Positions 5,565 through 39,657 of a stretch of DNA of 40,720 bases are shown piece by piece. The position numbers were made by a program, and so were the translations under genes. Where the stretch lies: the NCBI GenBank assembly GCA_043748865.1, contig JAYTNA010000065.1, forward strand, positions 1 to 40,720, given 5' to 3'. Origin of the DNA: Saprospiraceae bacterium (lineage in GTDB: Bacteria > Bacteroidota > Bacteroidia > Chitinophagales > Saprospiraceae). Position 1 is the stretch's first letter. Every line of letters starts with the position of its first letter. The notes beneath the pieces were generated by a model. That model searched no databases. It was not told the origin of the DNA and saw only the letters and a program-made list of their open reading frames with translations.

Positions 5565-5604
5565 CTCACACAAACAAACACTTTATTGAAAACTCTATGC
5601 CTTT

Positions 5605-5700
5605 ACAATTGACAATTTGCAATGAAAAAAAATTGTCAATTCTATATTATCAACTGTCCGTTGCAATTGTCAATTATCCATTGTCCATTATCAACTAACC
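5605..5700. repeat. Heptamer-word hairpin or tract element at the 3' end of the glucosaminidase gene
   Basis: Perfect 11-bp inverted repeat aattgacaatt (5607-5617) / aattgtcaatt (5631-5641). A 7-nt periodic tract follows at 5651-5700 (caactgt ccgttgc aattgtc aattatc cattgtc cattatc) and runs into the CDS stop. Confidence 0.6.
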
Positions 5701-6780: not shown

Positions 6781-7647
6781 ATGTACCCGATTATGATAGT
6801 AATTGTTGATAGCGGCTCAACCAAAGCGGATTGGGAAATAATTCACGATGACGGTAAAAAAGAATTGGTGACAACGATGGGATTTAATCCGTATTTCGTT
6901 GACGAAGACCGCATTGAAAAGGAATTAAAAAAAGATTTCGTCAAAAAAGTAAAGGTGGATGCGGTTGATAAAGTTTATTTTTACGGCGCGGGATGTTCTG
7001 ATGTAGAGAAAAACGCTATTGTACAACGCGGTTTGGCGCGTATTTTTACAAATGCTTCGCTGATTGAAGTAGATCACGATTTGTTGGCGTGTGCGCGTGC
7101 CGTTTGCGGTACGCAGCCAGGAATTGCGTGTATAATCGGTACCGGATCGAATACTTGTCTATACGACGGGAAAAAAGTAATAGACAATGTAGCTAATCTC
7201 GGGTTTTTACTCGGAGACGAAGGCAGCGGTTCGCATCTCGGCAAATTATTGATTCAAGCATATTTTTATCGCGAATTGCCAAAAGATATAGAAGTTTTAT
7301 TTGAAAAAGAATATGGCAATAATAAGGTGGACATATCGAATCATATTTATGGCAAATCACCGAATGTTTATTTGGCATCATTCGCCAAGTTTTTTTCTCA
7401 AAATAAAAATCATTTTTATATTCAGAAATTGGTGAGCGATGCTTTCGATGCACTCATCACGCGCCATATTTTAAAATATAAAGATTGTCACAATATGCCG
7501 ATTAACTTTATTGGTTCTATTGCTTATCACTTTCAAGACATTTTAAAAATGGCGTTACAAGAACACGATTTAAAACTTGGTATCGTTGTTCAAAAACCCA
7601 TTGATAATTTGGTGGAGTTTCATTTAAAAAATATAGACACGTTATAA
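6781..7647 (+). CDS. BadF/BadG/BcrA/BcrD-type ATPase, N-acetylglucosamine kinase-like
   Basis: N-terminal phosphate-1 motif VDSGSTKADW, GTGSN and LGDEGSG motifs of the ASKHA sugar-kinase family. Divergent from the glucosaminidase gene. Confidence 0.8.
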   Translation: MYPIMIVIVDSGSTKADWEIIHDDGKKELVTTMGFNPYFVDEDRIEKELKKDFVKKVKVDAVDKVYFYGAGCSDVEKNAIVQRGLARIFTNASLIEVDHDLLACARAVCGTQPGIACIIGTGSNTCLYDGKKVIDNVANLGFLLGDEGSGSHLGKLLIQAYFYRELPKDIEVLFEKEYGNNKVDISNHIYGKSPNVYLASFAKFFSQNKNHFYIQKLVSDAFDALITRHILKYKDCHNMPINFIGSIAYHFQDILKMALQEHDLKLGIVVQKPIDNLVEFHLKNIDTL

Positions 7648-7734
7648 TGGTTATTGGTTATCGGTTATTAGTTATTGGTTACACATTTTTAAATGGATAA
7701 TCAATTAACCAATAACCGATAACCAATAACCATT
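7646..7734. repeat. Heptamer-word hairpin (ggttatt family) after the kinase gene; archetype of the family
   Basis: Left arm aatggttattggttatcggttatt(agttatt)ggtta starts inside the TAA stop. Right arm ttaaccaataaccgataaccaataaccatt spans 7705-7734. The stem is about 24 bp and perfect; the left arm carries one extra heptamer. Confidence 0.85.
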
Positions 7735-7744
7735 CATTTTAATT

Positions 7745-8734
7745 ATGACTACAGTAAAGAAAATAAAACGCATTGCAGTATTTACTTCCGGCGGAGATGC
7801 GCCCGGTATGAATGCAGCTATCAGAGCAGTAGTACGCACCGGCACCTATCATGGTTTACACGTGTACGGCATTGAACGCGGTTATGAGGGAATGATAAAC
7901 GGAAAAATAAAAAGGTTAGAAACAAATGATGTCGGTAATATCATTCATCGCGGCGGTACTATGCTGAAAACAGCGCGTTCGAAAGAGTTTATGACACCGG
8001 AAGGCAGAGCAAAAGCACATGAAGTTTTGAAAGCCAATGATATTGATGCGTGTATAGCCATCGGCGGGAATGGTACTTTTACCGGTGCCGATATTTTTTC
8101 GAAAGAATACGGTATGCCATTTATCGGCGTTCCCGGTACGATTGATAATGATTTATACGGTTCTGATTTAACCATCGGTTTTGATACGGCAATTAATACG
8201 GCAATGGAAGCCGCCGATAAAATTCGAGATACCGCCGACTCACACAACCGTTTATTTATTATCGAAGTGATGGGTCGCCATGCCGGTTTTATTGCTTTAC
8301 ATTCTGCCATCGGAAGCGGAGCAGGCGGTGTTTTAATTCCGGAAAGACCCGATGCTTTAGAAAATTTGATCGAAAATTTAAAAAAATCGGCTAAACGCGG
8401 CAAACATTTCAGTTTGGTAGTTGTAGCAGAAGGTAATCAATACGGCGGAGCAGATGCAGTTGCAAAAAAAATAAAAGAAAATTTTGATTACTACGACACC
8501 AAAATAGCTATCATCGGACACTTACAACGCGGCGGTTCTCCAACTTGTATTGATCGCGTTTTAGCTAGTCGTCTCGGTTATGAGGCTGTTGAAGTATTAC
8601 TTCGCGGCGAACAAAATGTGATGGTGGGTATTTTGAATAATCAAATTGAACTCACACCTTTACACGATGCGATTACAAAACACAAAGAAGTAAATAGCGA
8701 ACTTTTGCGCATGGCGCATATTTTAGCACTTTGA
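7745..8734 (+). CDS. pfkA: ATP-dependent 6-phosphofructokinase
   Basis: RIAVFTSGGDAPGMNAAIRAVVR, GGNGTF, PGTIDND, MGRHAGFIAL, GHLQRGG. Full length at 329 aa; TGA stop at the expected C-terminus. Confidence 0.95.
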   Translation: MTTVKKIKRIAVFTSGGDAPGMNAAIRAVVRTGTYHGLHVYGIERGYEGMINGKIKRLETNDVGNIIHRGGTMLKTARSKEFMTPEGRAKAHEVLKANDIDACIAIGGNGTFTGADIFSKEYGMPFIGVPGTIDNDLYGSDLTIGFDTAINTAMEAADKIRDTADSHNRLFIIEVMGRHAGFIALHSAIGSGAGGVLIPERPDALENLIENLKKSAKRGKHFSLVVVAEGNQYGGADAVAKKIKENFDYYDTKIAIIGHLQRGGSPTCIDRVLASRLGYEAVEVLLRGEQNVMVGILNNQIELTPLHDAITKHKEVNSELLRMAHILAL

Positions 8735-8795: not shown

Positions 8796-10295
8796 ATGAA
8801 AACTACTAACATCCTTTTATGGTTGTGCTTGCTTTTGGTGTCATTAAATATGCCAGCGCAAAACAAAATCGGTATTTTCGATATCAATGAAGATATTGGT
8901 AAACCCGTTATTAAAGGCACCGCATCGTTCAATGAAGCAACACAAGAGTATACGATTGCCGGTGCCGGTTCAACGATGTGGTACAATGCCGATCAATTTC
9001 ATTTTCTTGCGAAAAAAATCACGGGTGATTTTACAGTTTCTGCAACCGTTCGATTTGTTGGTACAGGTGTTGAAGCACATCGCAAAATCGGTATCATGGC
9101 AAGAAATGCGCTGACCGGTAATTCTGCTTACGCCGATGCTTGCGAACACGGCAACGACTTAACGTCGTTACAATTTAGAACGACGGATACAAGCGGAACA
9201 GATGAAGTGGTGATTTCGTCTTTTCATCCTACTGAAATTGAATTACAGCGGATTGGTAATAAATTTATTTTTTCTGCCGCCACTTTCGGCGAAAATTACA
9301 AATCGGTCAGTAAAGAAATAAATTTGAACGATGAAGTATATGCGGGCTTTTTCATCTGTTCGCACAATGAAAAAGTTTTAGAAAAAGCTATTTTCAGTAA
9401 CGTGCGAATTACTATTCCGCCGCAAAAAAATTACAAACCCGGACAAGATTATATCGGCAGTCATCTCGAAATTATGAATGTTGAAACAGGTGTAAGAAAG
9501 ATAATTTACTCGGTACCTAATTCCATTCAAGCTCCGAATTGGACAAAAGACGGCAAGACCTTGGTATTTAATTCAGAAGGTAAAATTTTTAGTTTCGATT
9601 TAACAAAAAATACTGTCACGCAATTGAACACCGGCACAGTCATAAATAATAATAACGATCATGTGCTGTCGTTTGACGGGAAAAGATTGGGATTAAGTAG
9701 TTTTGAAAGCGCAAAAAGAACTTCTACCATATTGACAGTACCGATTGACGGTTCCGAAACTCCTACGATTATTTCATCCGTTGATTCCGGACATTCTTAT
9801 TTGCATGGTTGGTCGCCTGACGGAAAAAAATTGGTTTTTACCGGCGAACGCAACAAACAATTTAATATTTACGCTATTGACATCGCTACGAAAAAAGAAA
9901 CCCGATTGACAAATTTTCCGACACTTAGTGACGGTCCCGAATATACACCGGACGGAAAATATATTTATTTCAATTCGGTGCGCACCGGTACAATGAAAAT
10001 TTGGCGCATGCAACCGGATGGCAGCGCACAAGAGCAAATAAGTTTTGATGAGTATAACGATTGGTTTCCGCATATTTCACCCAACGGTAAGCAAATTGTA
10101 TATTTATCGTTTCCGAAAGAAATTAATCCTTCAGCACATCCTTGGTATCAAAAAGTCTATCTCCGATTAATGCCATCCGCCGGCGGTGTACCAAGAACTA
10201 TTGCTTATTTATTTGGTGGACAAGGTACTATTAATGTGCCGTCGTGGTCACCGGACAATAAATATATTGCATTTGTGAGCAATACAAAATTATAA
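8796..10295 (+). CDS. Secreted TolB-like beta-propeller (PD40 repeat) protein with an N-terminal jelly-roll-like domain
   Basis: Signal peptide (LLWLCLLLVSLNMPAQ). C-terminal repeats of type WSPDGKKLVF, YTPDGKYIYF, ISPNGKQIVY and WSPDNKYIAF are typical of PD40/TolB propellers. Confidence 0.75.
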   Translation: MKTTNILLWLCLLLVSLNMPAQNKIGIFDINEDIGKPVIKGTASFNEATQEYTIAGAGSTMWYNADQFHFLAKKITGDFTVSATVRFVGTGVEAHRKIGIMARNALTGNSAYADACEHGNDLTSLQFRTTDTSGTDEVVISSFHPTEIELQRIGNKFIFSAATFGENYKSVSKEINLNDEVYAGFFICSHNEKVLEKAIFSNVRITIPPQKNYKPGQDYIGSHLEIMNVETGVRKIIYSVPNSIQAPNWTKDGKTLVFNSEGKIFSFDLTKNTVTQLNTGTVINNNNDHVLSFDGKRLGLSSFESAKRTSTILTVPIDGSETPTIISSVDSGHSYLHGWSPDGKKLVFTGERNKQFNIYAIDIATKKETRLTNFPTLSDGPEYTPDGKYIYFNSVRTGTMKIWRMQPDGSAQEQISFDEYNDWFPHISPNGKQIVYLSFPKEINPSAHPWYQKVYLRLMPSAGGVPRTIAYLFGGQGTINVPSWSPDNKYIAFVSNTKL

Positions 10296-13922: not shown

Positions 13923-14000
13923 ATTAGTCAATTAGTCGGATAGTCAGTTAGTGAAATTGTGAGTTAATTTATTTTGACTAACTGACTAACCGACTAATTG
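13923..14000. repeat. Heptamer-word hairpin (tagtcag family) between susC-like and susD-like genes
   Basis: Left arm attagtcaattagtcggatagtcagttagt; right arm gactaaactgactaaccgactaatt. The arms are largely complementary, with a loop of about 23 nt. Confidence 0.8.
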
Positions 14001-14042
14001 GCTAAAAAAATTTTCTTAAAATTTTTTAATAATTATTCATCA

Positions 14043-15790: not shown

Positions 15791-15877
15791 TAATGGTTAA
15801 TGGTTAATGGTTAGTTGTTAATTTTTATAATTAACCGGTAACCATTAACAACTAACCATTATAAAAGACTTTTTTTC
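15791..15877 (+). repeat. Heptamer-word hairpin (taatggt/tagttgt family) with a following T-run; probable susD terminator
   Basis: Left arm taatggttaatggttaatggttagttgttaat (15791-15822). Right arm attaaccggtaaccattaacaactaaccatta (15830-15861). Then ...gacttttttt. Confidence 0.8.
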
Positions 15878-15907
15878 ATACATTTTAGTAATTTTTGAGG
15901 CAAGCAA

Positions 15908-16072
15908 TAATAGTTGTTAGTTGTTAGTTGTTAGTTGTTAATTTTATTATTGACTATTAATAATTATTCATTAAGAATTATTCATTGTTTGCCTTTTTTT
16001 ATTTCATAAAGTTTAATTTTACGGTTTCAAGAGAAAATTATTTCGACTCACAATTAATAACTAACAACTATT
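15908..16072. repeat. Tandem heptamer (tagttgt x4) with a distant inverted partner abutting the adh start codon
   Basis: tagttgt x4 occupies 15911-15938. The complementary attaataactaacaactatt occupies 16053-16072 and ends one nt before the ATG at 16073. Confidence 0.7.
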
Positions 16073-17116
16073 ATGACACCTGCAAAAGCTTACGCAGCAT
16101 TTAGTCCGACAGAAGATTTAAAACCATGGGATTTTACGCGCCGCCAAGTAGGCGCACACGATGTTCAATTTGATATTATGTACTGCGGCGTGTGTCACTC
16201 CGATTTACATCAAATTAGAAGTGAATGGTTTCCCGGTACTTATCCGATGGTTCCGGGTCATGAAATAGTAGGGCGCGTTACAAAAGTCGGTTCGCACGTA
16301 AAAAAATTTAAAGCCGGTGATTTAGCGGCTGTCGGTGTTTTAGTTGATTCTTGTCGCACTTGCCCGAATTGTAACAACGGATTGGAACAGTATTGCGAAA
16401 ATGGCAACTCGGGTACTTACAACGCTTTAGAACAAGATAAAAAAACACCCACTTACGGCGGCTATTCCAATGTGATTGTTACGCATGAAGATTTTGTTTT
16501 TAAAATTTCAGATAAATTATCTTTACCCGGTATTGCACCTTTGTTATGCGCAGGCATTACAACTTATTCGCCGTTGCGTCATTGGAAAATCGGTAAAGGA
16601 CATAAAGTTGCAGTTTTGGGTCTCGGTGGTTTAGGGCACATGGCAGTTAAATTTGCCGTAGCTTTTGGTGCGGAAGTCACGATGTTGAGTACATCGCCTT
16701 CAAAAGAAGCAGATGCACAACGTCTCGGGGCGCATCATTTTGTTTTAACTTCCGATAAAGCACAAGTAGCCGCCTGCAAAAATAGTTTCGATTTTATTAT
16801 TGATACTGTTTCAGCAGAGCATGATTATAATCAATATCTGAAATTATTGAAAACAAACGGTGTGCATATTTGCGTCGGTATTCCGCCGACACCTTTGCAA
16901 ATTGCCGGTTTCAGTTTACTTAACGGCAGAAAAAGTTTGGCAGGTTCTTCTATCGGCGGTTTGCCGGAAACGCAAGAAATGCTCGATTTTTGCGCCGAAC
17001 ACAATATCGTTGCAGATATTGAACTCATTAATATCAAAGATATTCACGCTGCCTATGACCGTATGTTGAAAGGCGATGTGAAATATCGTTTTGTTATTGA
17101 TATGGCAACATTGTAA
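16073..17116 (+). CDS. Zinc-dependent NAD(P) alcohol dehydrogenase (cinnamyl-alcohol dehydrogenase / YahK-like)
   Basis: GVCHSDLH and GHEIVG catalytic-zinc motifs. Structural zinc cysteines CRTCPNCNNGLEQYC. GLGGLGH Rossmann motif. Confidence 0.92.
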   Translation: MTPAKAYAAFSPTEDLKPWDFTRRQVGAHDVQFDIMYCGVCHSDLHQIRSEWFPGTYPMVPGHEIVGRVTKVGSHVKKFKAGDLAAVGVLVDSCRTCPNCNNGLEQYCENGNSGTYNALEQDKKTPTYGGYSNVIVTHEDFVFKISDKLSLPGIAPLLCAGITTYSPLRHWKIGKGHKVAVLGLGGLGHMAVKFAVAFGAEVTMLSTSPSKEADAQRLGAHHFVLTSDKAQVAACKNSFDFIIDTVSAEHDYNQYLKLLKTNGVHICVGIPPTPLQIAGFSLLNGRKSLAGSSIGGLPETQEMLDFCAEHNIVADIELINIKDIHAAYDRMLKGDVKYRFVIDMATL

Positions 17117-17118
17117 TT

Positions 17119-21021
<3,903 letters not shown>

Positions 21022-21131
21022 TTTTTTAAGGATATTGAGATAAAAAACAGCAAGGAATAAACCGGAATATTTTAAATTGATAACTTAATTATACACTCTC
21101 GTAATTTTTCCTAACATCAAATACAAAGAGA

Positions 21132-22187
21132 TCAAATCAAATTATACCAAGTGCCTTTCCCGATACCATTTCGTTGAATTTGATTATTTTTCACTAAACT
21201 TTCAAGGTGTTTTCGTAAGGTATTTCGATTATATTGTGTGAAAGTTGCCAATTCACTTATCGTAATGCGCCCATTTTCACGAATTAAATCCACAATTGTT
21301 TGCGACATATCCGGCAGTTGCGTTAGCAAAAGGCGTTCTCGTTTTATCTTAATATCTAAATTATCTTTTTGACGTTTCAGCGATTTTAGAAAAAACAAAA
21401 CCCACGGCGACCAATTGGGTTCGTCCTGATTGAGTGTTGTTTGAGTTTGGCGCAATGATCGGTAATATTCGGGCTTCTCCCGTTCAATCACCGCTTCAAG
21501 AGAACTGTATGCTACATAACGATAACCCGCTTTTAGCAATAAAAAAGTCGTCAAAACTCTTGAAAGCCGTCCATTCCCATCTTGAAAAGGATGAATTGCC
21601 AAAAAACTAACCGTAAAAAAAGCAATAATCAATAAAGGATGCCAGTCTCTTTTTTTCAGATTTTCGACTGCCCAATCCACTAATTCTTGCATTTTTATTG
21701 GTGTTTCCAAAGGTGTCGTTGTTTCAAAAACGACCCCAACAACTTGACCAAAAGGATCTGTTGCGACCACATGATTCGGGAATTTTTTATATTGTCCTTT
21801 ATGCCATTGGTCTTTTTCACTATACTTCATCAGGTAGTCGTGTAGCTGTTGAATGAAATTTTCAGACAATGGAATATCATTATAATTATCAAAAACTATC
21901 GTCATCAAATCTGCATATCCTGCCACTTCTTGCTCGTCTCGGGTTTCAAATTTTTGAATTTTGAGATCGGCAATCAATTTTTCTACTTGTTGGTCAGTCA
22001 ATAAACTGCCTTCGATACGGGTACTTGATGCAATACTTTCTATCGTTGCTACTTTTCTAAGTTGCAACAATCTGTCGGGTGCGATATTGCCTAAAGCCAA
22101 CCACGCTCCTTTAAATTCGTCAATTTCTGTCATCAGATTGACGATTTGTTTTGTCAATATCAAAAATTCTGTTTTTACCATACGCAC
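21132..22187 (-). CDS. Fic/DOC-family protein (putative AMPylase) with an N-terminal inhibitory motif and a C-terminal winged-helix domain
   Basis: Canonical Fic motif HPFQDGNGRLSR (aa 199-210, nt 21558-21593). S-x-x-x-E-G inhibitory-helix motif STRIEG (aa 55-60). C-terminal HTH-like region (ISELATFTQYNRNTLRKHLESLV). Confidence 0.92.
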   Translation of the reverse strand: MRMVKTEFLILTKQIVNLMTEIDEFKGAWLALGNIAPDRLLQLRKVATIESIASSTRIEGSLLTDQQVEKLIADLKIQKFETRDEQEVAGYADLMTIVFDNYNDIPLSENFIQQLHDYLMKYSEKDQWHKGQYKKFPNHVVATDPFGQVVGVVFETTTPLETPIKMQELVDWAVENLKKRDWHPLLIIAFFTVSFLAIHPFQDGNGRLSRVLTTFLLLKAGYRYVAYSSLEAVIEREKPEYYRSLRQTQTTLNQDEPNWSPWVLFFLKSLKRQKDNLDIKIKRERLLLTQLPDMSQTIVDLIRENGRITISELATFTQYNRNTLRKHLESLVKNNQIQRNGIGKGTWYNLI

Positions 22188-22326
22188 ATTTTATCCAAAA
22201 GTACGCATAAAAATCATGTCAACCTAATAAAAGCCTTTAAACCTTATTTTTTATCTAAAAATGTATCCGTAAATACGCATAAATTATTTGAAAGTATAAA
22301 ATCATGCTAAAATACCGTACTTTTGC

Positions 22327-22410
22327 AAAAAAAAATCGTGCGGAAAAATTTTTTTTTCTGCGCGATTTTTTTTTATTTTTTCCGAAAAAATTTTTTTTTA
22401 TCGCACCGCA
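22327..22410. repeat. A-run/T-run palindromes with short GC cores in the fic / DUF418 divergent intergenic region
   Basis: aaaaatcgtgcgg (22331-22343) pairs with ctgcgcgattttt (22358-22370), allowing two G-T wobbles. Similar tccgaaaaaa/ttttttttta/tcgcaccgc blocks follow. Confidence 0.5.
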
Positions 22411-22569
22411 AATAAATATTTTCGGACGGTAGTTTTTTCTTCAATATTTTTTATAATTTTGACAATGGCTTGGGAAGACGGAATACTAATTCACACCTGT
22501 AGCAAGCCCTGTTCGTTATCGGTCATTGTAAAGCAAACCTTAAACTAAAAATAAATTCATATCAAAGAC

Positions 22570-23784
22570 ATGCAAAATCTTACAATAAAAAGAATTGAAC
22601 AAATTGACGCATTACGAGGCTTTGCATTATTTGGTATAATAATGACACATATGTTTGAAGGCTATTTGGCAAGTATGACACTGCCTCAATATATGGGATT
22701 TAATATTCTATACCCTATAGACAGTTTTTCACAAGTTGTAATTCAAAACCTGTTTGTCGGAAAATTTTATGCAATATTCTCAATGTTATTTGGACTAAGT
22801 TTCTATTTAATATTAGACCAGAAAAAAGGCTCAAGTTCTTTGAAATTTATCTGGAGATTAGTGTTGTTATTTCTCATTGGCTTTATTCACCATGTACATT
22901 ATAGAGGTGATTTTTTGACCGTTTATGCGGTCTTTGGTTTTGCATTAGTGCTTTTCAGAAAAGTTCCTAATAAAATCATTTTGATTCTTGGGCTTTTTCT
23001 TGCTTTCAACGGGCCTTCTATAATAACGAATTCTATCTCATTAATTCAAAAATCAAGGCAGGATACAGTCCAAGTTATAAAAGAAACTAAAATCATACCT
23101 TTCGATAATTCAGCAGATAATCCTGTTACACAGGCAACTGCTTATTTTGATTTGATACTTAAAGGTGAATACCGAAAATTGCTTGTGTCTAATAGCACTA
23201 CCGGCTTTTACAATAAATACAATTACCTAAAATTTAGTGGCAGACTATGGGTTATTCCGGGATTGTTCTTGTTAGGACTTTGGATAGGTCGTAAAAAATG
23301 GCACGAACAAATAGACAAGATTCCATTGGTTAAAATAATTTCTTTTTCAGCTTTAATAGGTATACCGTTGATAATAATAAGTTATTATTTTTCACTACCA
23401 ACCAATACCGGATTTATTCGTTATGTTGGCTCTATTGCCAAAGATGCTTCCAATATTTTTATGCCTCTTTTATATATCACTATTTTACTTTCTCTTTTCA
23501 AACTAAGTAGCACAAATAAAATCGTCAGTCAATTGATCCCGGTAGGTAAAATGGGACTTACAACCTATGCGTTACAGTCTGCTTTTGGCATTTTTATATT
23601 TTATGGCTATGGACTTGGACTTTTATTAAAATTATCAGGAACTGCGGCACTTGGACTTGGATTGCTATTTTTTCTTTTACAAATAGTCTTTAGTAAGTGG
23701 TGGTTCAGCAAGTATAAGTTTGGTCCATTGGAGTGGCTTTGGAGGAGTGGGACAAATGGAAGCTGGCAAACTATAAAACTATGA
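22570..23784 (+). CDS. DUF418-domain integral membrane protein (YeiB-like)
   Basis: RIEQIDALRGFALFGII start, multiple hydrophobic helices, and the C-terminal GPLEWLWRS motif characteristic of DUF418. Confidence 0.85.
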   Translation: MQNLTIKRIEQIDALRGFALFGIIMTHMFEGYLASMTLPQYMGFNILYPIDSFSQVVIQNLFVGKFYAIFSMLFGLSFYLILDQKKGSSSLKFIWRLVLLFLIGFIHHVHYRGDFLTVYAVFGFALVLFRKVPNKIILILGLFLAFNGPSIITNSISLIQKSRQDTVQVIKETKIIPFDNSADNPVTQATAYFDLILKGEYRKLLVSNSTTGFYNKYNYLKFSGRLWVIPGLFLLGLWIGRKKWHEQIDKIPLVKIISFSALIGIPLIIISYYFSLPTNTGFIRYVGSIAKDASNIFMPLLYITILLSLFKLSSTNKIVSQLIPVGKMGLTTYALQSAFGIFIFYGYGLGLLLKLSGTAALGLGLLFFLLQIVFSKWWFSKYKFGPLEWLWRSGTNGSWQTIKL

Positions 23785-23957
23785 ATGATTGCGACATATT
23801 ATTCTTGCAACACGAAAAAGATACATGCACGCCCTCATAATCACATCTTTTAATAATTTTTTTTACAAAGATAGCATATTTTTTGCGTTATTTGTGTGTG
23901 CTTGGTAATAAAATGATACTATGCGTACTGAAATATCAATGCCGAAATAAAAAAATC

Positions 23958-25367
23958 ATGAGATACACATTTATATTTTTTTTGCTCCTAATTGCTCTCG
24001 CTTGTAAAGATACCAAACCCAAACCGGTTGTCGTCTTAAAACCTGACGTAGAGTATTTGCATGATGCCGAACAAAAACTCACCGACATCATCATCACCGA
24101 TATTTTCAATCCGCCGGTAGCGAGTCGCGTTTATGTGTATCCGCTTTTGGCAGCATATGAAGCGGGAAGATTTTCTTCAGCTATCAGCTATCAACTATCA
24201 GCTATCAGTAATCAATCGTCAGGTGGTAACAAAAACCATAAAGCTGATAGCTTAAAGCTGATAGCTGATAGCTATTCTTCTATCACTAATCAACTCAAAG
24301 GTTTTGATAAAATGCCGACACCCGAAGCGGGAAAAGATTATGATTATACTGTTGCTTCCATCAAAGCATTTTGTACAGTTGCACCGAAAGTTATTTTTTC
24401 AGTTAAAGTTATTGCCGATTTTGAAACACAAACCTTAAATGTACTCAAAACGCGCTCGACGGATGAAGTTTATAACCGCTCTGTCGCTTTCGGTCAACAA
24501 GTGGCGGATGTAATCATAAAACGATTAAGTATTGATAATTACAAAGAAACACGCGGTATGTCGCGCTTTGAAGTAAAAAATGATATTCCCGGTCGTTGGG
24601 TGCCGACGACGCCGGATTATGCGGATGGTATAGAAGCACATTGGGGAAAAATGAAAACGTTGGTAATGGATTCTGCATCGCAATGCAAACCGCCGCCGCC
24701 GCCTGCTTACAGTGAAGATAAAATGAGTGCGTTTTGGAAAGAGACGCAAGAAGTTTACAACATCAGTAAAACAATGACAGATGAGCAAGAAAATATCATT
24801 TCTTTTTGGGATGATAATCCGTTTGTTTCTCGACATAAAGGGCATTTGATGTTTCAAGATAAAAAAATGACGCCGGGCGGGCATTGGTTGGCGATAGCTC
24901 GATTGTTTTTAAAAGAAAAAAATGCCGATTTCTATACTTCTTTGAAAACTTACGCGCTCACATCCGTTGTACTTTATGAAGGTTTTATCAGTTGTTGGGA
25001 TGAAAAATATCGCAATCCTTGCGTGAGACCGGAAACTGTTATCAGTGCAAAAATAGATAGACAGTGGCATCCGAATTTAGTAACGCCGGCATTTCCTTCT
25101 TATACTTCCGGACACAGTACGATTTCTGCATCGGCGGCAGAAGTTTTGACTGCTTTGTTCGGCGATAATCAAAAATTTACGGATACAACAGAAAAAGAAT
25201 TTGGTTTGCCTGTTCGCTCTTTTACTTCCTTTCGCCAAGCGGCGAGAGAAGCGTCTATCAGCCGCGTTTATGCGGGTATTCATTTTCGTTCCGATTGTGA
25301 CAAAGGCAATGAACAAGGAAAAAAAGTGGGACAGTTAATCAATTCCAAATTACAAATTACGAATTAG
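23958..25367 (+). CDS. PAP2-superfamily / vanadium-dependent haloperoxidase-like lipoprotein
   Basis: Starting at the internal Met gives MRYTFIFFLLLIALAC, a lipoprotein signal. PAP2 motifs PSYTSGHS and SRVYAGIHFRSD are in the C-terminal part. The track start at 23883 adds a Cys-rich non-signal leader. Confidence 0.85.
   Translation: MRYTFIFFLLLIALACKDTKPKPVVVLKPDVEYLHDAEQKLTDIIITDIFNPPVASRVYVYPLLAAYEAGRFSSAISYQLSAISNQSSGGNKNHKADSLKLIADSYSSITNQLKGFDKMPTPEAGKDYDYTVASIKAFCTVAPKVIFSVKVIADFETQTLNVLKTRSTDEVYNRSVAFGQQVADVIIKRLSIDNYKETRGMSRFEVKNDIPGRWVPTTPDYADGIEAHWGKMKTLVMDSASQCKPPPPPAYSEDKMSAFWKETQEVYNISKTMTDEQENIISFWDDNPFVSRHKGHLMFQDKKMTPGGHWLAIARLFLKEKNADFYTSLKTYALTSVVLYEGFISCWDEKYRNPCVRPETVISAKIDRQWHPNLVTPAFPSYTSGHSTISASAAEVLTALFGDNQKFTDTTEKEFGLPVRSFTSFRQAAREASISRVYAGIHFRSDCDKGNEQGKKVGQLINSKLQITN
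24179..24274. repeat. 96-nt heptamer-word hairpin (cagctat family) in frame inside the haloperoxidase-like CDS
   Basis: Left arm agctatc agctatc aactatc agctatc agtaatc. Right arm aagctgatagcttaaagctgatagctgatagct. The outer 14 nt are perfectly complementary. Flanked by ttcttc at 24173-24178 and 24275-24280, which are 102 nt (34 codons) apart. Confidence 0.85.
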
Positions 25368-25407
25368 GAATGATGATTTTCAAACCGTAAATCGTAATTA
25401 TTTTTTT
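25347..25407 (+). repeat. Heptamer-word hairpin plus T-run at the 3' end of the haloperoxidase-like gene (probable terminator)
   Basis: Left arm aaattac aaattac gaatta lies inside the last codons (KLQITN stop). Right arm cgtaaatcgtaatt spans 25386-25399 and is followed by ttttttt. Confidence 0.6.
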
Positions 25408-27347: not shown

Positions 27348-27379
27348 GCGATTTTAGATTCCGATTTCAGATTTTAGAG
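27348..27379. repeat. Single-arm heptamer tract (gatttta family) upstream of can
   Basis: gatttta gattccg atttcag attttag shows 7-nt periodicity. I found no inverted partner nearby. Confidence 0.45.
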
Positions 27380-27432: not shown

Positions 27433-27468
27433 GTCAGTGAGTCTATTGTCCATTGTCAACTGTCAATT
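27433..27468. repeat. Heptamer tract (attgtcc/attgtca family) overlapping the MBL hydrolase stop codon
   Basis: gtcagtgagtctattgtccattgtcaactgtcaatt uses the same words as the tract at 5651-5700. Confidence 0.6.
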
Positions 27469-28095: not shown

Positions 28096-28119
28096 TTTGG
28101 ATTTTGAATTTTGAATTTA
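28096..28119. repeat. Heptamer tract (ttggatt/ttgaatt) directly abutting the MBL hydrolase start codon
   Basis: ttttggattttgaattttgaattt begins one nt beyond the start codon of the - strand gene. Confidence 0.6.
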
Positions 28120-28274: not shown

Positions 28275-28338
28275 ATTTTGGATTTTGGATTTTATCTGCG
28301 TATAAATTGAAAAAATTTAAAATCCAAAATCCAAAATC
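28275..28338. repeat. Heptamer-word hairpin (ttggatt family) 6 nt upstream of the recN start
   Basis: Arms attttggattttggatttt (28275-28293) and aaaatccaaaatccaaaatc (28319-28338) are nearly perfectly complementary, with a 25-nt loop. Confidence 0.85.
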
Positions 28339-30018: not shown

Positions 30019-30094
30019 TTGATTGATTAGTACAGAATTAATTTTTAAATTTTAAAATAACGTAACTGCCCAAGTTTTTATTCGATAGTTAAAT

Positions 30095-30116
30095 AACCGC
30101 TTCGCGGTTGTTTTTC
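30095..30116 (+). terminator. Rho-independent terminator after recN
   Basis: aaccgc-ttc-gcggtt GC-rich hairpin followed by gttttt. Confidence 0.6.
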
Positions 30117-31430: not shown

Positions 31431-32666
31431 ATGATTCATACAATGCGTTGGTTCGGTCCTGATGATGATGTTTCATTAATGGATATTCGACAAGCAGGTT
31501 GCACAGGCGTTGTCACTGCTTTACATCAAATTCCCGTCGGAGAAATTTGGTCAGTTGAAGCCATTGAAGAAAGAAAAAAAATTATTGAAAAAGACAATCA
31601 AAAATATGTGCCGCTCTTATGGTTGGTTACAGAAAGTTTGCCCATACATGAAGACATTAAAAAAGGTTTGCCGAGTCGTGAAAAATATATAGCGAACTAT
31701 ATCGCATCGCTTAAAAATTTAGCAGACTGCGGCATCAAAACGGTTTGTTACAATTTTATGCCTGTTTTAGATTGGTCGCGCACCAATTTAAAATACGAAA
31801 TGCCTGATGGTTCACGCGCTTTGCGGTTTGTTTGGGAAGATTTTGCTGTTTTCGATTTATACATTTTGAAACGTCCGAATGCAGAAAAAGATTATTCGGA
31901 GGCAGTCTGCGTATCTTCAAAAGAAAAATTCAGTCGCCTGAATAAGCAACAAAAAACAACGTTAAAAAATACGATTCTGTTGGGTTTACCGGGTTCAAAA
32001 GAAGCGTTTAAGTTGAAAAATTTTCAAGAACTTTTGGATAATTATAAAAATATCGGAGATAAAGAATTGCGCGAAAATCTTTATTATTTTATTCAAAAAG
32101 TAGCACCGATTGCCGAAAACTTAGGTGTCAAACTTTGTATTCACCCTGACGATCCGCCTTTTTCTTTATTAGGTTTGCCGAGAGTGCTTAGTACAGAACA
32201 CGATATAGAACAATTGATGGAATCCTGCGATGTGCGTGCTAACGGATTAACTCTTTGTACCGGTTCTTTAGGCGTAAGGCCTGATAATAATATTGTTCAA
32301 ATCGCTCAAAAATTTGCCGACAGAATTCATTTTATTCATTTACGTACTACAAAACGCGAAGCAACCGATGTAAGAGATAATAAATTTGCTTTTCACGAAG
32401 CCGCACATCTCGAAGGTGATGTTGATATGGTTGAAACTATAAAAGCAATTATCATTGAAGAAAATAAACGTCGAGAAGAAAGCCGACCGGATAATCAAAT
32501 TCCAATGCGTCCGGATCACGGACATCAGATGTTGGATGATTTGAAAAAGAAAACTTATCCTGGATATTCCGCCATAGGTCGTTTGAAAGGTTTAGCGGAA
32601 TTGAGAGGTATTGAATTAGCCGTCAGTCGATTAGTTATTAGTCAGTATTCTAAAATTTTAGATTAA
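31431..32666 (+). CDS. uxuA: Mannonate dehydratase
   Basis: N-terminus MRWFGPDDDVSLMDIRQAGCTGVVTALH is collinear with UxuA. LCIHPDDPP and the RPDHGH metal-site region are present. The last roughly 15 aa are encoded by a repeat arm. Confidence 0.93.
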   Translation: MIHTMRWFGPDDDVSLMDIRQAGCTGVVTALHQIPVGEIWSVEAIEERKKIIEKDNQKYVPLLWLVTESLPIHEDIKKGLPSREKYIANYIASLKNLADCGIKTVCYNFMPVLDWSRTNLKYEMPDGSRALRFVWEDFAVFDLYILKRPNAEKDYSEAVCVSSKEKFSRLNKQQKTTLKNTILLGLPGSKEAFKLKNFQELLDNYKNIGDKELRENLYYFIQKVAPIAENLGVKLCIHPDDPPFSLLGLPRVLSTEHDIEQLMESCDVRANGLTLCTGSLGVRPDNNIVQIAQKFADRIHFIHLRTTKREATDVRDNKFAFHEAAHLEGDVDMVETIKAIIIEENKRREESRPDNQIPMRPDHGHQMLDDLKKKTYPGYSAIGRLKGLAELRGIELAVSRLVISQYSKILD

Positions 32667-32699
32667 ATGATTGACTAATCGACTTAACGACTAACTAAC
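32622..32699. repeat. Heptamer-word hairpin (tagtcag family) straddling the uxuA stop codon
   Basis: Left arm gtcagtcgattagttattagtcagtatt lies inside the CDS. Right arm attgactaatcgacttaacgactaactaac spans 32670-32699. Confidence 0.7.
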
Positions 32700-34221: not shown

Positions 34222-34270
34222 AAAAAAAATGTTCCGAATTTTCTAACAGGAAAATTCGGAACATTTTTTT
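34222..34270. terminator. Bidirectional rho-independent terminator between the convergent GT2 and leuC genes
   Basis: Perfect stem atgttccgaattttc / gaaaattcggaacat with loop taacag. It is flanked by an A8 run upstream and a T7 run downstream. Confidence 0.85.
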
Positions 34271-35687: not shown

Positions 35688-35833
35688 TTATTAGTTGTTA
35701 AGTGTTAATGATAAATGGTTAGTTGTTATCAATTAATCGTAAAGGATTGGTTAATATTCAATTCGTTTATGTAGGTTGATAACGAAAATCAACCATTAAC
35801 CGGTAACAATTAAATATTAACCATTAACAATTG
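35688..35833. repeat. Heptamer-word inverted repeat (tagttgt/taatggt family) filling the leuA-leuC intergenic region and overlapping the leuA stop
   Basis: Left arm ttattagttgttaagtgttaatgataaatggttagttgttatcaattaat. Right arm ttgataacgaaaatcaaccattaaccggtaacaattaaatattaaccattaacaattg. The leuA C-terminus QLLMVNI plus stop is read from the right arm. Confidence 0.7.
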
Positions 35834-37004: not shown

Positions 37005-37084
37005 GACTTACTAACTTACTGACGATAGACTTACTGATGCCAAACTTACTTTTCCAATGTCAGTAAGTCTATCGTGAGTAAGTC
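37005..37084. repeat. Long heptamer-word hairpin (gacttac family) 29 nt upstream of the leuA start
   Basis: Perfect 16-bp core acgatagacttactga (37022-37037) / tcagtaagtctatcgt (37060-37075). It extends to about 24 bp with one mismatch. Confidence 0.9.
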
Positions 37085-37543
37085 CAAATCAATAAACAAA
37101 TTTAGAAGTATAAAAATACACAGACTGTTCAGCCCGAGCAGATAAATTTTGAATTTGCTTTACAATGTGTAAGAGATAATTTTTAGTATCTAATAAATTG
37201 ATTTGGTGTTAATTGTAAAAATTTTAATTACGGTGGCTGAAATAATTTTTTAATATTATTTTACTAAGTACCAAAACCTAATTGGTATTGCTATTGTTCT
37301 GATGCAATTGATAGTATTTGCTTCTAGTTATTCCTTTGCTATGTGTTTGAAAATGCCTAAAAGATAATATTTCATTCTTAAACGACTCAAAAAAAAACGA
37401 CCGGAAAGACTTATCTTAAAGTCGTTTTAGTTTTCTAATTTTTCATTAATAATATCGCTTTTAACAAAATATTGTCAATATTACAATAAGATAATGATAC
37501 AAACGTCCTTTAGTATAATAGAATGAGTGAATTAAAACGAGTA

Positions 37544-37597
37544 AAAGTTGAAAATTGAAAATAAATTCAACTTTCAACTTTCAGCTTCAACTTTCAG
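37544..37597. repeat. Heptamer-word hairpin (caacttt family) just upstream of the ftsH start
   Basis: Left arm aaagttgaaaattgaaa; right arm ttcaactttcaactttcagcttcaactttcag. The ORF-track start at 37548 reads through this element. Confidence 0.75.
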
Positions 37598-37610
37598 TTA
37601 TAAAAAAATA

Positions 37611-39119
37611 ATGGATAATAATGATTTTGAAAGACCAAAAAGTTCAGGCAACGGCTACGGTTCGTGGTGGCTTTACGGTTTAATAGCTTTAGTGATAATT
37701 GCGGTGCAAATTTATAGTTTCGGTACGGTCGAAAAAAATCAATATACTTCAACTGATCTCGAAACTATGTTGCGCAATGATGACGTGGATAGATTGGTTT
37801 TATATAACGATGAATCGCTCGATATTTATCTGAAACCGGATAGATTGAAAGCGTGGAATATAACGCCGAGTAAAATTCCCAACCGTCCCAACGGTACGTT
37901 GCGTTTTCCGGGAAAATATTTTAATGAATTTTGGACGAAATTTTACGAAAAAAATCCGACGATTCAGAAACCACGCATGGAATACGACACTAGACCTAAC
38001 GTATTGCCGCAGATAATAAATTATTTGTTTTTAATTATTTTATTCGGCTTACTTTGGTATTTCGTTATTCGTCGTGTCGGTGGTGGTGCGGGTGGTCCTG
38101 GTTCTCAAATATTTAATATCGGACGCTCACGCGCTACTTTATTCGATCAAGGTGCAAAAGTAAAAGTAACTTTTGCGAATGTTGCCGGTTTAGATGAAGC
38201 CAAAGAAGAAGTGATGGAAGTCGTAGATTTTTTAAAAAATCCGAAAAAATACATGGCACTCGGCGGTAAAATCCCGAAAGGTGTGTTGCTCGTCGGTCCT
38301 CCGGGTACCGGTAAAACGCTTTTAGCAAAAGCGGTTGCAGGTGAAGCCGATGTACCTTTCTTTTCAATTTCAGGTTCCGATTTTGTAGAAATGTTTGTTG
38401 GGGTCGGCGCAAGTCGTGTACGTGATTTATTCCGTCAAGCGCGTGAAAAAGCACCATGCATTATTTTTATTGACGAAATTGATGCGATTGGTCGTTCACG
38501 CGGGAAAGGTGCGTTTCAAGGCGGTAATGATGAGCGCGAAAATACTTTGAATCAATTGCTTGTTGAGATGGACGGTTTTCCGACGGATAAAGCCGTAATA
38601 TTAATGGCGGCGACAAATCGTGCAGATGTTTTAGACAACGCACTTTTGCGTCCAGGACGTTTTGACAGACAAATCGGTATTGATGTGCCGGATTTAAGAG
38701 GTCGCGAACAAATTTTTGAAGTGCATCTGAAAGATATTAAAACAACCGAAGGCGTAAATCCTGCGGTCTTGGCAGAAATGACACCGGGTTTTGCCGGTGC
38801 CGACATCGCCAATATCTGTAATGAAGCCGCGCTGATTGCTGCGCGCAGAAATAAAACTGGTGTGGATATGGATGATTTCAATTACGCACTCGATAAAATC
38901 ATCGGCGGTTTGGAACGCAGAAGTAAAATCATTGCGCCGGAGGAAAAGAAAATTATTGCTTACCATGAAGCAGGTCACGCCGTTTGCGGTTGGTTTCTTG
39001 AACACGCGAGTCCGCTCGTGAAAGTGACAATTGTACCGCGCGGTATCGGAACGCTCGGGTACGCGCAGTATTTACCTAAAGATGAATACATCACGCGCAC
39101 TGAAGCCTTAAACGACTGA
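37611..39119 (+). CDS. ftsH: ATP-dependent zinc metalloprotease FtsH, N-terminal fragment (TM helices, AAA+ module, HEAGH), ending at an in-frame TGA
   Basis: [10 protein letters not shown] start followed by TM helices. GPPGTGKT Walker A, IIFIDEID Walker [30 protein letters not shown] zinc motif. TGA at 39117-39119. Confidence 0.9.
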
Positions 39120-39125
39120 ATTTGT

Positions 39126-39545
39126 ATGGCACTCGGCGGTCGCGCTGCCGAAGAAGTTATTTTCGGAAAAGTTTCTACGGGTGCACAAAGTGATTTAGAT
39201 AATATTACGCGCATTGCTTACAGCATGGTTGCGGTATATGGTATGAACGATAAAGTCGGCAACGTGTCGTATTACGGTATGTCGCAAGAAGGTTATAATC
39301 GGCCTTACTCGGATGTCACTGCTGCGATAATGGATAAAGAAGTACGCGAAATTATTGATATTCAATTCATTCGCGCCAAACAATTGCTTACTGAACGTCG
39401 GTTCGAATTAGAAACGCTTGCGGAACATTTGCTTGAAAAAGAAGTACTTGTGAAATCTGATGTAGAAAGACTGATAGGTAAGCGTCCGTTTGCGGAAAGT
39501 GAAAATGCGAGAATTGCGCACAGTGGATTTGAATCGCGGTCGTGA
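39126..39545 (+). CDS. ftsH: FtsH C-terminal fragment, same reading frame as the preceding ORF
   Basis: (IC)MALGGRAAEEVIFGKVSTGAQSDLDNITRIAYSMV is the conserved M41 protease segment that normally follows directly after the sequence preceding the TGA. 39126 and 37548 are in the same frame. Confidence 0.85.
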   Translation: MALGGRAAEEVIFGKVSTGAQSDLDNITRIAYSMVAVYGMNDKVGNVSYYGMSQEGYNRPYSDVTAAIMDKEVREIIDIQFIRAKQLLTERRFELETLAEHLLEKEVLVKSDVERLIGKRPFAESENARIAHSGFESRS

Positions 39546-39616: not shown

Positions 39617-39657
39617 AATCGCACAGACAAATTAATTTATCTGTGTGATTTTTTTTA
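39617..39657 (+). terminator. Rho-independent terminator after ftsH
   Basis: Stem aatcgcacaga / tctgtgtgatt (one G-T pair) with a 12-nt loop, followed by a T-run of 8. Confidence 0.75.

Follow-up and report, generated by a model that had tools for sequence, protein, structure and literature searches.

Tandem arrays of seven-nucleotide units have been known in bacteria since 1990, in the form of the short tandemly repeated repetitive (STRR) elements. Those of heterocystous cyanobacteria were reportedly described by Mazel in 1990, Vioque (1997) is said to have placed STRR within helix P12 of the RNase P RNA, and Jackman and Mulligan (1995) reportedly called nif intergenic regions 'highly variable but structured'. 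The subject here is a set of hairpins whose arms are short periodic arrays, found in 40,720 nucleotides (nt) of DNA from a Saprospiraceae bacterium (GenBank assembly GCA_043748865.1, contig JAYTNA010000065.1, positions 1 to 40,720 of the forward strand; hereafter the window), with the hairpin at 7646–7734 as the focal case. We consider it probable, if well short of certain, that these sites are palindromic microsatellites, that is inverted pairs of 7-nt, sometimes 8-nt, arrays, made and remodelled in place by slippage and arm copying.

Long simple sequence repeats have had a recognized heptamer class since 2007, when, as related in PMC4679880 and PMC4692102, Mrazek, Guo and Shah described heptamers as over-represented among long simple repeats in many bacteria; PMC4692102 judged detailed literature on heptameric repeats to be lacking as of 2015. 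In five Bacteroidetes, none of them Chitinophagales, MacGregor (2015; PMC4679880) described TAACTGA and further heptamers arranged as direct repeats rather than hairpins. The remark of an initial inspection of the letters (the sequence-only reading) that it knew of no equivalent description for Bacteroidota has therefore to be qualified. A literature search for heptamer hairpins in Chitinophagales, Saprospiraceae and Flavobacteria found nothing, and the searchable literature gave no account of period-specific hairpin pairing, of the arm polarity described below, of word turnover at fixed sites or of in-frame coding hairpins in Chitinophagales. This lineage constrains the possible answers to two questions about heptamer repeats, the reason for a 7-nt unit and the role that they have.

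Periodic hairpins in the window and beyond

The focal site, to which no strand is assigned, is:

7646–7734: hairpin, left arm (GGTTATY)n, right arm (RATAACC)n

It reads AATGGTTATTGGTTATCGGTTATTAGTTATTGGTTA, loop, TAACCAATAACCGATAACCAATAACCATT. The arms returned by the repeat finder (7646–7674 and 7706–7734) are 29 nt long and 97% complementary, and 7644–7736 folds with a minimum free energy (MFE) of −46.6 kcal/mol (z = −11.9). Read directly, the left arm has one additional unit, AGTTATT, compared with the reverse complement of the right arm, as the sequence-only reading had noticed in proposing that arms differ by whole heptamers. The stem takes in the TAA stop (7645–7647) of a 288-amino-acid gene, and 10 nt separate its end from the ATG of pfkA at 7745.

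That the period-7 hairpin signal is a real, non-random feature of this DNA is confirmed. Tandem Repeats Finder (TRF) lists about 30 period-7 rows in the window, and our own scan found 12 perfect period-7 arrays of at least 2.5 copies, as against 0.0 expected from a first-order Markov model of the window; the same strict scan gave none at period 6 or at periods 8–15. With mismatches tolerated there are 21 period-7 arrays in the window, 14 of them with an inverted partner (an exact reverse-complement 10-mer within 200 nt), and none of the 12 period-5 and period-6 arrays has one. Intergenic autocorrelation, a kind of check that had been proposed, gives z scores of 5.0, 5.2 and 3.0 for lags of 7, 14 and 21 nt. 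An Rfam scan of the window at gathering thresholds returned no matches, and a scan of it for transfer RNAs and transfer-messenger RNA none either.

Pairing depends on period far beyond the window. In a pooled sample of the window and about 2.1 Mb of other loci, a reverse-complement partner accompanies 68 of 163 period-7 arrays (42%) and 16 of 37 period-8 arrays (43%), as against 2 of 112 at period 5 and 6 of 225 at period 6; for the same period-7 arrays a complement-only control gave 15/163 and a reverse-only control 1/163. Pairing is concentrated in loci labelled Chitinophagales, and arrays are dense there too: 52 per 100 kb in the window and 9.3 in Chitinophagales-labelled loci, with 1.0 in Cytophagales. 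That nearly every site has its own word, as first claimed, is borne out at this scale, since 127 arrays sort into 84 word classes when rotation and strand are disregarded, and at least 16 different words occur in the window alone. No motif emerged when a common core was sought in the 127 arrays, only a mild enrichment of GTT/AAC, AACG and GTTG. A metagenome scan for close relatives with the ADH protein had a best match of 76% identity and served as a background set only.

The window carries, by Pfam, an ordinary housekeeping map of genes. Homologues of its large FG-GAP/ASPIC protein are labelled Saprospiraceae or Lewinellaceae, and the nearest genome locus is that of a Chitinophagales metagenome-assembled genome (MAG), L001, with a PFK 89% identical. 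The hairpins are not an assembly artefact, because two assemblies made independently from the same strain (L081 and L082) each differ from the window by a single mismatch, and because genomes of cultured strains, among them Pinibacter aurantiacus (L022) and Chitinophagaceae bacterium 26-R-25 (L015), have the same structures. These two cultured Chitinophagaceae also have long unpaired TCTCAAC/TTTCAAC arrays of up to 16 units (L015 8600–8712, L022 13229–13269), and the word class AAAATTG/TTTCAAC is common to L015, L022, L029 and the window (37544).

The first count, of at least 17 sites with paired heptamer arms, has to be trimmed. Fifteen of the 19 sites listed are hairpins with periodic arms; by TRF, inverted-repeat search and folding the other four (20758, 27348, 27433 and 28096) are unpaired arrays, and three sites have periods other than 7 (8 nt at 13923, mixed 7/8 at 32622, 15 at 37005). 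Recurrence of words at distant loci was confirmed for TTAGTC (13923, 32622 and L001 8894–8981) and for CAATTGW (5631, 27441 and the close relative L084). The remaining sites are given below, with a strand only where one is assigned.

5602–5700: degenerate ACAATTG and AATTGTC arrays forming a weak hairpin (TRF; MFE −16/−20 kcal/mol, z = −1.8), beginning at the stop codon (5691–5693) of a minus-strand glucosaminidase gene and followed by a classical minus-strand terminator (5567–5540)
13923–14005: hairpin between susC-like and susD-like genes with an 8-nt period by TRF (NNTTAGTC / GACTAANN), arms of 33 nt, 91% complementary, MFE −44.5 kcal/mol, z = −11.5
15791–15861: hairpin of (TAATGGT)3 TAGTTGT and its complement, MFE −29.7 kcal/mol, z = −7.9, starting 2 nt past the susD-like stop
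15908–16074: array (TAGTTGT)4.3 at 15911–15940 (TRF, 100% matches) with a partner at 16046–16074 that overlaps the ADH ATG at 16073 (inverted pairs I4 and I9); the array can pair alternatively with the right arm of the previous hairpin (15826–15862)
17119–17350: outer pair of ATGAATG x3 (17119–17138, starting 2 nt past the ADH stop) and ATTCATC x4.6 (17319–17350, within the signal-peptide coding region of the FG-GAP/ASPIC gene), from TRF, inverted-repeat search and folding
18844–18920, plus strand: in-frame hairpin in the FG-GAP/ASPIC gene, translation open, with a degenerate left arm (CTGAGCC ATTAGCA TTGAGAC GCGAGCC) and a perfect right arm, (AGCTCAA)5 (TRF, 100% matches)
19148–19282, plus strand: in-frame hairpin in the FG-GAP/ASPIC gene, left arm TATTGGG-type, right arm CCCAATA/CCTAATA (TRF, translation, folding)
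20758–20799, plus strand: unpaired in-frame array (TCAGCAA)6 in the FG-GAP/ASPIC gene, encoding SAISNQQSAISNQQ (TRF, 97% matches)
24179–24274, plus strand: in-frame hairpin AGCTATC / GATAGCT in a PAP2/VCPO-like gene, arms of 30 nt, 90% complementary, MFE −42.8 kcal/mol, z = −8.8
25347–25399: weak hairpin AAATTAC / GTAATT, MFE −11.8 kcal/mol, spanning the PAP2-like stop and followed by a run of 7 T
27348–27379: unpaired weak GATTTCA-type array (TRF; fold not significant, z = −0.3), lying immediately upstream of the start codon (27346) of the minus-strand carbonic anhydrase gene
27433–27468: unpaired array ATTGTCM (TRF; z = 0.6), overlapping the stop of a metallo-beta-lactamase-fold gene (minus strand)
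28096–28119: unpaired array ATTTTGR (TRF, 94% matches), adjoining the start codon of the metallo-beta-lactamase-fold gene (28095, minus strand)
28275–28338: perfect hairpin (ATTTTGG)2.7 / (AAAATCC)2.9, arms of 20 nt, 100% complementary, MFE −22.3 kcal/mol, z = −5.8, ending 6 nt before the recN-like ATG at 28345
32622–32699: TTAGTC-family hairpin of period 7/8 (TRF, folding, copy alignment), left arm in the uxuA 3' end, right arm ending 11 nt before the next ATG (32711)
35688–35833: degenerate heptamer hairpin (TRF, AACCATT x6, 71% matches; z = −4.1) filling the spacer of the minus-strand leuA-like and leuC-like genes; MFE −38.5 kcal/mol for the plus-strand fold and −28.2 for the minus-strand (sense) fold
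37005–37084: hairpin with a 15-nt period (7+8; ACTTACTGACGATAG), arms of 24 nt, 96% complementary, upstream of the leuA-like start
37544–37597: hairpin AAAGTTG / TTCAACT (TRF, folding), just upstream of ftsH

Between 15791 and 16074 four segments can pair alternately (15791–15823 with 15829–15861, 15826–15862 with 15910–15946, 15907–15935 with 16046–16074), the last pair covering the ADH start codon; the layout resembles an attenuator, but shared words alone could produce it. Nested in the ATGAATG/ATTCATC pair is a strong hairpin without heptamers (17153–17233; 35-nt arms, 89% complementary, −34 kcal/mol); the close relative has mostly different sequence throughout this spacer.

Turnover at fixed positions

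The close relative (L083/L084) is about 94% identical and covers window positions 7306–33471. Outside the sites aligned identity is 94.2% in coding and 94.5% in intergenic sequence; inside them it is 73–82%, with many indels, and words turn over at fixed positions about 4–5 times faster than neutral neighbouring sequence. In three cases position is kept while the word changes: at 15791 TAATGGT is answered by a CAATTGA-type array with a right arm of 11 units, at 15911 TAATGGT x4 stands in place of TAGTTGT x4, and at 17319 TTCATTT replaces ATTCATC. The 13923 hairpin has been heavily remodelled, unit by unit, in L084 (39% of columns changed), the 20758 array has a degenerate counterpart of equal length that is 31% different, the 25347 hairpin is 41 nt longer and the right half of the 27433 array has been replaced. 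At the position of 24179 there is an unrelated 52-nt segment in L083, and CAGCAGT x2 in L085. The sites at 28096 and 28275 are identical in the two genomes, and the focal hairpin is present in L084 with three substitutions. No compensatory double changes were seen between window and close relative, the changes being limited to one arm.

At the greater distance of L001 (about 80% nucleotide identity to the window) presence itself varies. The focal hairpin is missing there, the orthologues of the 288-amino-acid gene and pfkA overlapping as ATGA, and it is likewise missing in L002, L003 and L007, which have little or no spacer at that position; hence the hairpin at 7646–7734 is derived in the lineage of the window. 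Conversely, L001 has at 8894–8981 an 82-nt TTAGTC-type hairpin where the window has none. Such filled and empty sites are what small mobile palindromic elements, resembling miniature inverted-repeat transposable elements (MITEs) or the Rickettsia palindromic elements, would leave if they inserted at gene boundaries or in frame and then decayed, and the period-8 TTAGTC family (13923, 32622, L001 8894) and the insertions within proteins, reminiscent of those of Rickettsia, can be read in the same sense. A possible TTATRA duplication at the edges of 7646 is a weak pointer that comes from one filled/empty pair read closely, and selection for keeping both genes intact could also explain it. We nevertheless regard mobility as quite improbable. 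The 127 arrays hold 84 word classes, copies with the same word have no common loop, terminal or flank sequence, lengths differ by unit steps, words change at a fixed position, and there is no transposase, RAYT or similar protein among the Pfam hits of the window. A MITE family in the strict sense was rejected, since no consensus with terminal inverted repeats exists: the most similar copies have only the word TTAGTC in common, not loops or flanks, as the sequence-only reading had anticipated.

Word turnover bears equally on the idea that the arrays are binding sites for a repeat-recognizing protein, on DNA or RNA, as has been proposed for the TAACTGA repeats of Beggiatoaceae and for Nostoc heptamers. 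Arrays here do adjoin start codons, as in MacGregor (2015; PMC4679880), TAACTGA itself occurs within the right arm at 13975, and a Nostoc preprint (10.1101/2022.06.06.494920) tells of regulatory effects on deleting heptamer repeats. Yet no word is common to the sites, with at least 16 in the window, the words differ at orthologous sites of close relatives, and one sequence-specific binder could not read them all, which makes this the least credible of the alternatives and a very remote one.

Gapped alignment of a left arm with the reverse complement of its right arm places gaps ambiguously in periodic sequence, and many cases are messy, but clean whole-unit length differences of 7 and 14 nt occur at 7646, 37005 and 35688. 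By direct reading, the unit variants of one arm recur in mirrored order in the other at 7646, at 13923 and at L001 8894–8981, an indication that one arm is a copy of the other.

Palindromic microsatellites could arise as follows. Each locus would grow and be remodelled in place by replication slippage in whole-unit steps, and a variant unit could spread through its array, so that the word drifts and comes to differ from site to site. The second arm would be made, and kept roughly mirrored, by copying from the first through fold-back or intrastrand template switching of the quasi-palindrome-correction type. Such a process would be independent of the word, dependent on the period, and would act on DNA. 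Selection would only set limits: structures would persist where tolerated, filling the spacers from stop to start codon, and in permissive protein segments (signal peptide, inter-domain loops) length would be kept at a multiple of three and stop-forming units removed.

Gene boundaries, arm polarity and coding sequence

The hairpins lie mostly in spacers of co-directional genes (from the 288-amino-acid gene to pfkA, along susC-like, susD-like, ADH and ASPIC genes, from uxuA to an SDR gene, and from the leuA-like to the leuC-like gene). On the gene map many stems take in the upstream stop codon and end 0–11 nt before the next start codon, and for 29 of 54 hairpins the start is no more than 12 nt away from a stop codon. 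The likely expectation is of very stable mRNA stem-loops bridging upstream stop and downstream start codons, which would probably alter translational coupling, initiation and mRNA processing and would not terminate transcription.

Termination had been implied by the sequence-only reading and fares poorly. With a G+C-rich stem, a loop of 3–8 nt and a T-run straight after the stem as the pattern, only 37542–37583 (minus strand) passes among the heptamer hairpins, and most of these lie between co-directional genes or in coding sequence; as a class they are ruled out as intrinsic terminators. The same reading was right that classical GC-rich terminators exist elsewhere in the window: those it named, now placed at 34223–34270 and 39622–39645, are among five found, along with 5567–5540 (minus strand), 22327–22374 and 30091–30113.

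A polarity runs through the hairpins. In 14 of 16 in the window the 5' arm has more G than C and the 3' arm more C than G (G-first), and the two C-first exceptions include 37005; other loci give 44 G-first hairpins against 6, and 46 of 51 non-redundant hairpins in the combined set are G-first (46 against 5). Where a hairpin starts at a stop codon the tally is 27 to 0, and for the remainder 19 to 5. Three of the five classical terminators (5567–5540, 30091–30113 and 39622–39645) have the opposite polarity. Since G-first is unchanged by reverse complementation, it comes neither from the transcribed strand nor from leading versus lagging strand. It could be due to a fold-back step that is polar, to selection that keeps the arm next to start codons poor in G, or to avoidance of a C-rich arm that is exposed first. 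Seeding of words by stop codons was considered and is insufficient, as the rule also holds 19:5 away from stops; the notion that 5' arms supply stop triplets in all frames was dropped because the word GGTTATT contains none.

These observations can be assembled into another account, in which the hairpins are selected RNA structures (for coupling or gating of translation, protection from 3' exonucleases, or as RNase III sites) and heptamer slippage only supplies the variation. Stems of 20–39 bp suffice in length for RNase III. The placement fits as well, stems adjoining or including stops and ending just before starts (7646, 16046–16074, 28275, 32622, 35688), with that concentration of hairpins near stop codons; foldability is kept despite change of word (at 5605, where L001 has a hairpin with the word TTATGAG, and at 15791 compared with L084), and G-first leaves the arm on the side of the start codon G-poor. 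In Bacteroidetes the folding of mRNA around the start codon, together with adenines upstream, tunes initiation (PMC6847099), a sensitivity that favours this account. Against it, sense and antisense folds are equally stable, antisense being better at three coding sites, and the absence of asymmetry in folding energy or G-U pairs between the strands argues against selection on one RNA strand. The compensatory changes that would be looked for are absent from the comparison with the close relative, presence varies among close relatives, the focal hairpin took the place of an ATGA overlap that already coupled both genes, and some hairpins sit within coding sequence, a place in which a stem in the mRNA would serve no evident purpose. 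As the primary explanation we think selected RNA structure unlikely, though the strongest of the alternatives; a selected role in translational coupling or processing is compatible with palindromic microsatellites and does not exclude them.

Five arrays or hairpins lie in coding sequence, in two genes: 17319 (signal peptide), 18844, 19148 and 20758 are in frame within the intact 1237-amino-acid FG-GAP/ASPIC gene, and 24179 is in frame within the PAP2/VCPO-like gene. Homologues about 65% identical are without these segments of 10–25 residues (that at 18844 is about 24 amino acids), and in the L085 and L086 orthologues the loop corresponding to 18844 contains independent heptamer hairpins, built from different words and folding down to −51.8 kcal/mol. 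Since 7 = 1 modulo 3, an array is read in all three frames, and none of the words in the perfect coding arrays (AGCTCAA, TCAGCAA, AGCTATC, ATTCATC) contains a stop triplet. The two coding arms with a stop-containing word have deviant units exactly where the stop would be in frame: at 19148 a perfect CCTAATA array would give in-frame stops and units 1 and 4 are in fact CCCAATA, and in the right arm at 24179 unit 2 is altered exactly at the would-be TGA. The L086 ASPIC orthologue also has, at about 9990–10110, a G+C-rich non-periodic hairpin (−45 kcal/mol) that is inserted in frame and adds 18 residues (VPLWSPSNQRRPQGCAPT); as a palindromic insertion into this gene family it is of another kind.

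Several points weigh against slippage and arm copying as a full account. A register-shift test of mirrored arms gave 0.77 versus 0.67, a difference that is biased by the choice of the best diagonal and only suggestive. Variation in copy number within the population was not found, L081 and L082 being identical to the window in this respect. Several words differ at two or more positions per unit between genomes only some 6% diverged; such word replacement exceeds simple concerted evolution, and therefore an extra process is needed, for which mutation at a locally higher rate, ectopic conversion among adjacent arrays, and re-insertion are candidates. The model gives no reason for a unit of 7 nt. 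Foldability that is kept while sequence turns over is the classical signature of a selected structure, and plain slippage does not predict the G-first rule, which points to a polar mechanism or to selection.

Pressed further, the polarity might reflect an active polar mechanism that writes palindromic 7-nt microsatellites with the C-rich copy always 3' of the G-rich array, the hairpins then being exploited as fast-evolving, tunable couplers of one gene's stop codon and the next gene's start codon. It may operate in Chitinophagales and perhaps in STRR-bearing cyanobacteria, as a property of replisome or repair or through a dedicated enzyme. We put it forward as a speculation, slightly less likely than selection for RNA structure; were it true, the G-first rule and the fixed 7-nt step would be its signatures and not by-products of generic slippage.

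Whichever reading prevails, the question why 7 is narrowed by period-linked palindromic pairing, G-first arms, fast word turnover and an invasion of coding loops that is under visible selection for frame and stop avoidance. Cultured carriers (Pinibacter aurantiacus, Pinibacter soli, Niastella and Chitinophagaceae 26-R-25) make such questions testable. There are practical consequences also. The hairpins break short-read assemblies, as is evident from L082 ending inside two arrays; they inflate intergenic divergence, and the 10–25 extra protein residues will confuse orthology and annotation.

Other features of the window deserve record. An island of about 2.9 kb (21022–23950), with genes for Fic/DOC (SoFic in PADLOC, E = 5.5e-47) and for DUF418, is flanked by arrays of similar word, TCAGCAA at 20758 and TCAGCTA at 24177; it is missing in L083, where the ASPIC gene directly precedes the PAP2-like gene. 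The neighbouring genes at 709–2510, for an AAA_21 ATPase and a DUF4276 protein, match HEC-01, a candidate defence system in PADLOC (HEC-01A, E = 6.6e-135; HEC-01B, E = 3e-77). Upstream of topA, the extremely A/T-rich segment 5363–5541 contains 38-nt inverted repeats as well as a 97-nt tandem duplication (1.8 copies at 84% matches). The spacer that separates the PAP2-like and mevalonate decarboxylase genes has in L083 (7302–7751) about 450 nt extra that the window lacks (25536/25537). Finally, ftsH (37548–39545) has a single in-frame TGA at 39117–39119 (…GAA GCC TTA AAC GAC TGA ATT TGT ATG GCA…), past which its Peptidase_M41 domain resumes in the same frame; no other gene of the window is broken in this way, and the TGA could reflect a pseudogene, a sequencing error or recoding.

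Comparison with known systems

Palindromic families with a consensus are the more distant comparison. Repetitive extragenic palindromic sequences and bacterial interspersed mosaic elements (REP/BIME) are likewise palindromic and intergenic between co-transcribed genes, and the Rickettsia palindromic elements likewise insert in frame in protein-coding genes, as do the arrays at 17319, 18844, 19148, 20758 and 24179. Both have a consensus for each family, with the RAYT transposase in the case of REP; here the arms are periodic and there is no consensus. No Y1-transposase Pfam hit was found in the window, to which that search was confined, and in place of a shared family consensus of some 100–150 nt orthologous inserts differ in word.

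The TAACTGA repeats (PMC4679880), known also from Beggiatoaceae and Cyanobacteria, come nearer, as intergenic heptamer arrays that often end a few nt before a start codon and occur in some Bacteroidetes; they differ in having one word that is almost only direct (one inverted among 170 sets), where here there are many words as hairpins. Long simple sequence repeats, defined by units of 5–11 nt and arrays longer than composition would give by chance, include the present arrays on the count of 12 observed against 0.0 expected. Going by PMC4679880 and PMC4692102, the 2007 study has over-representation of period 7, a proposal of slippage and a mostly non-coding location in common with what is seen here; it dealt with direct arrays, and inverted partners, word turnover and coding insertions do not figure in those summaries of it.

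Closest are the STRR, and the likeness first proposed holds for tandem arrays of heptamer units whose word differs at almost every site. Both are dense, mostly intergenic and capable of forming stem-loops, copy number and sequence vary between close strains, and both can sit in a functional gene product. By TRF and our own scans the tandem unit is a heptanucleotide, with a minority of sites at period 8 or 15. The differences are as plain. STRR belong to heterocyst-forming cyanobacteria and reuse a few fixed words (STRR1–3), three in the canonical set; the genomes closest to the window are Chitinophagales and Saprospiraceae MAGs, and dozens of words take the place of three. Inverted pairing is here a measured rule, at the 42% given above, and in-frame occurrences in protein genes and G-first arms set these sites further apart. 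The best reading is that the palindromic microsatellites are the Chitinophagales counterpart of the cyanobacterial STRR and of the heptamer long simple sequence repeats.

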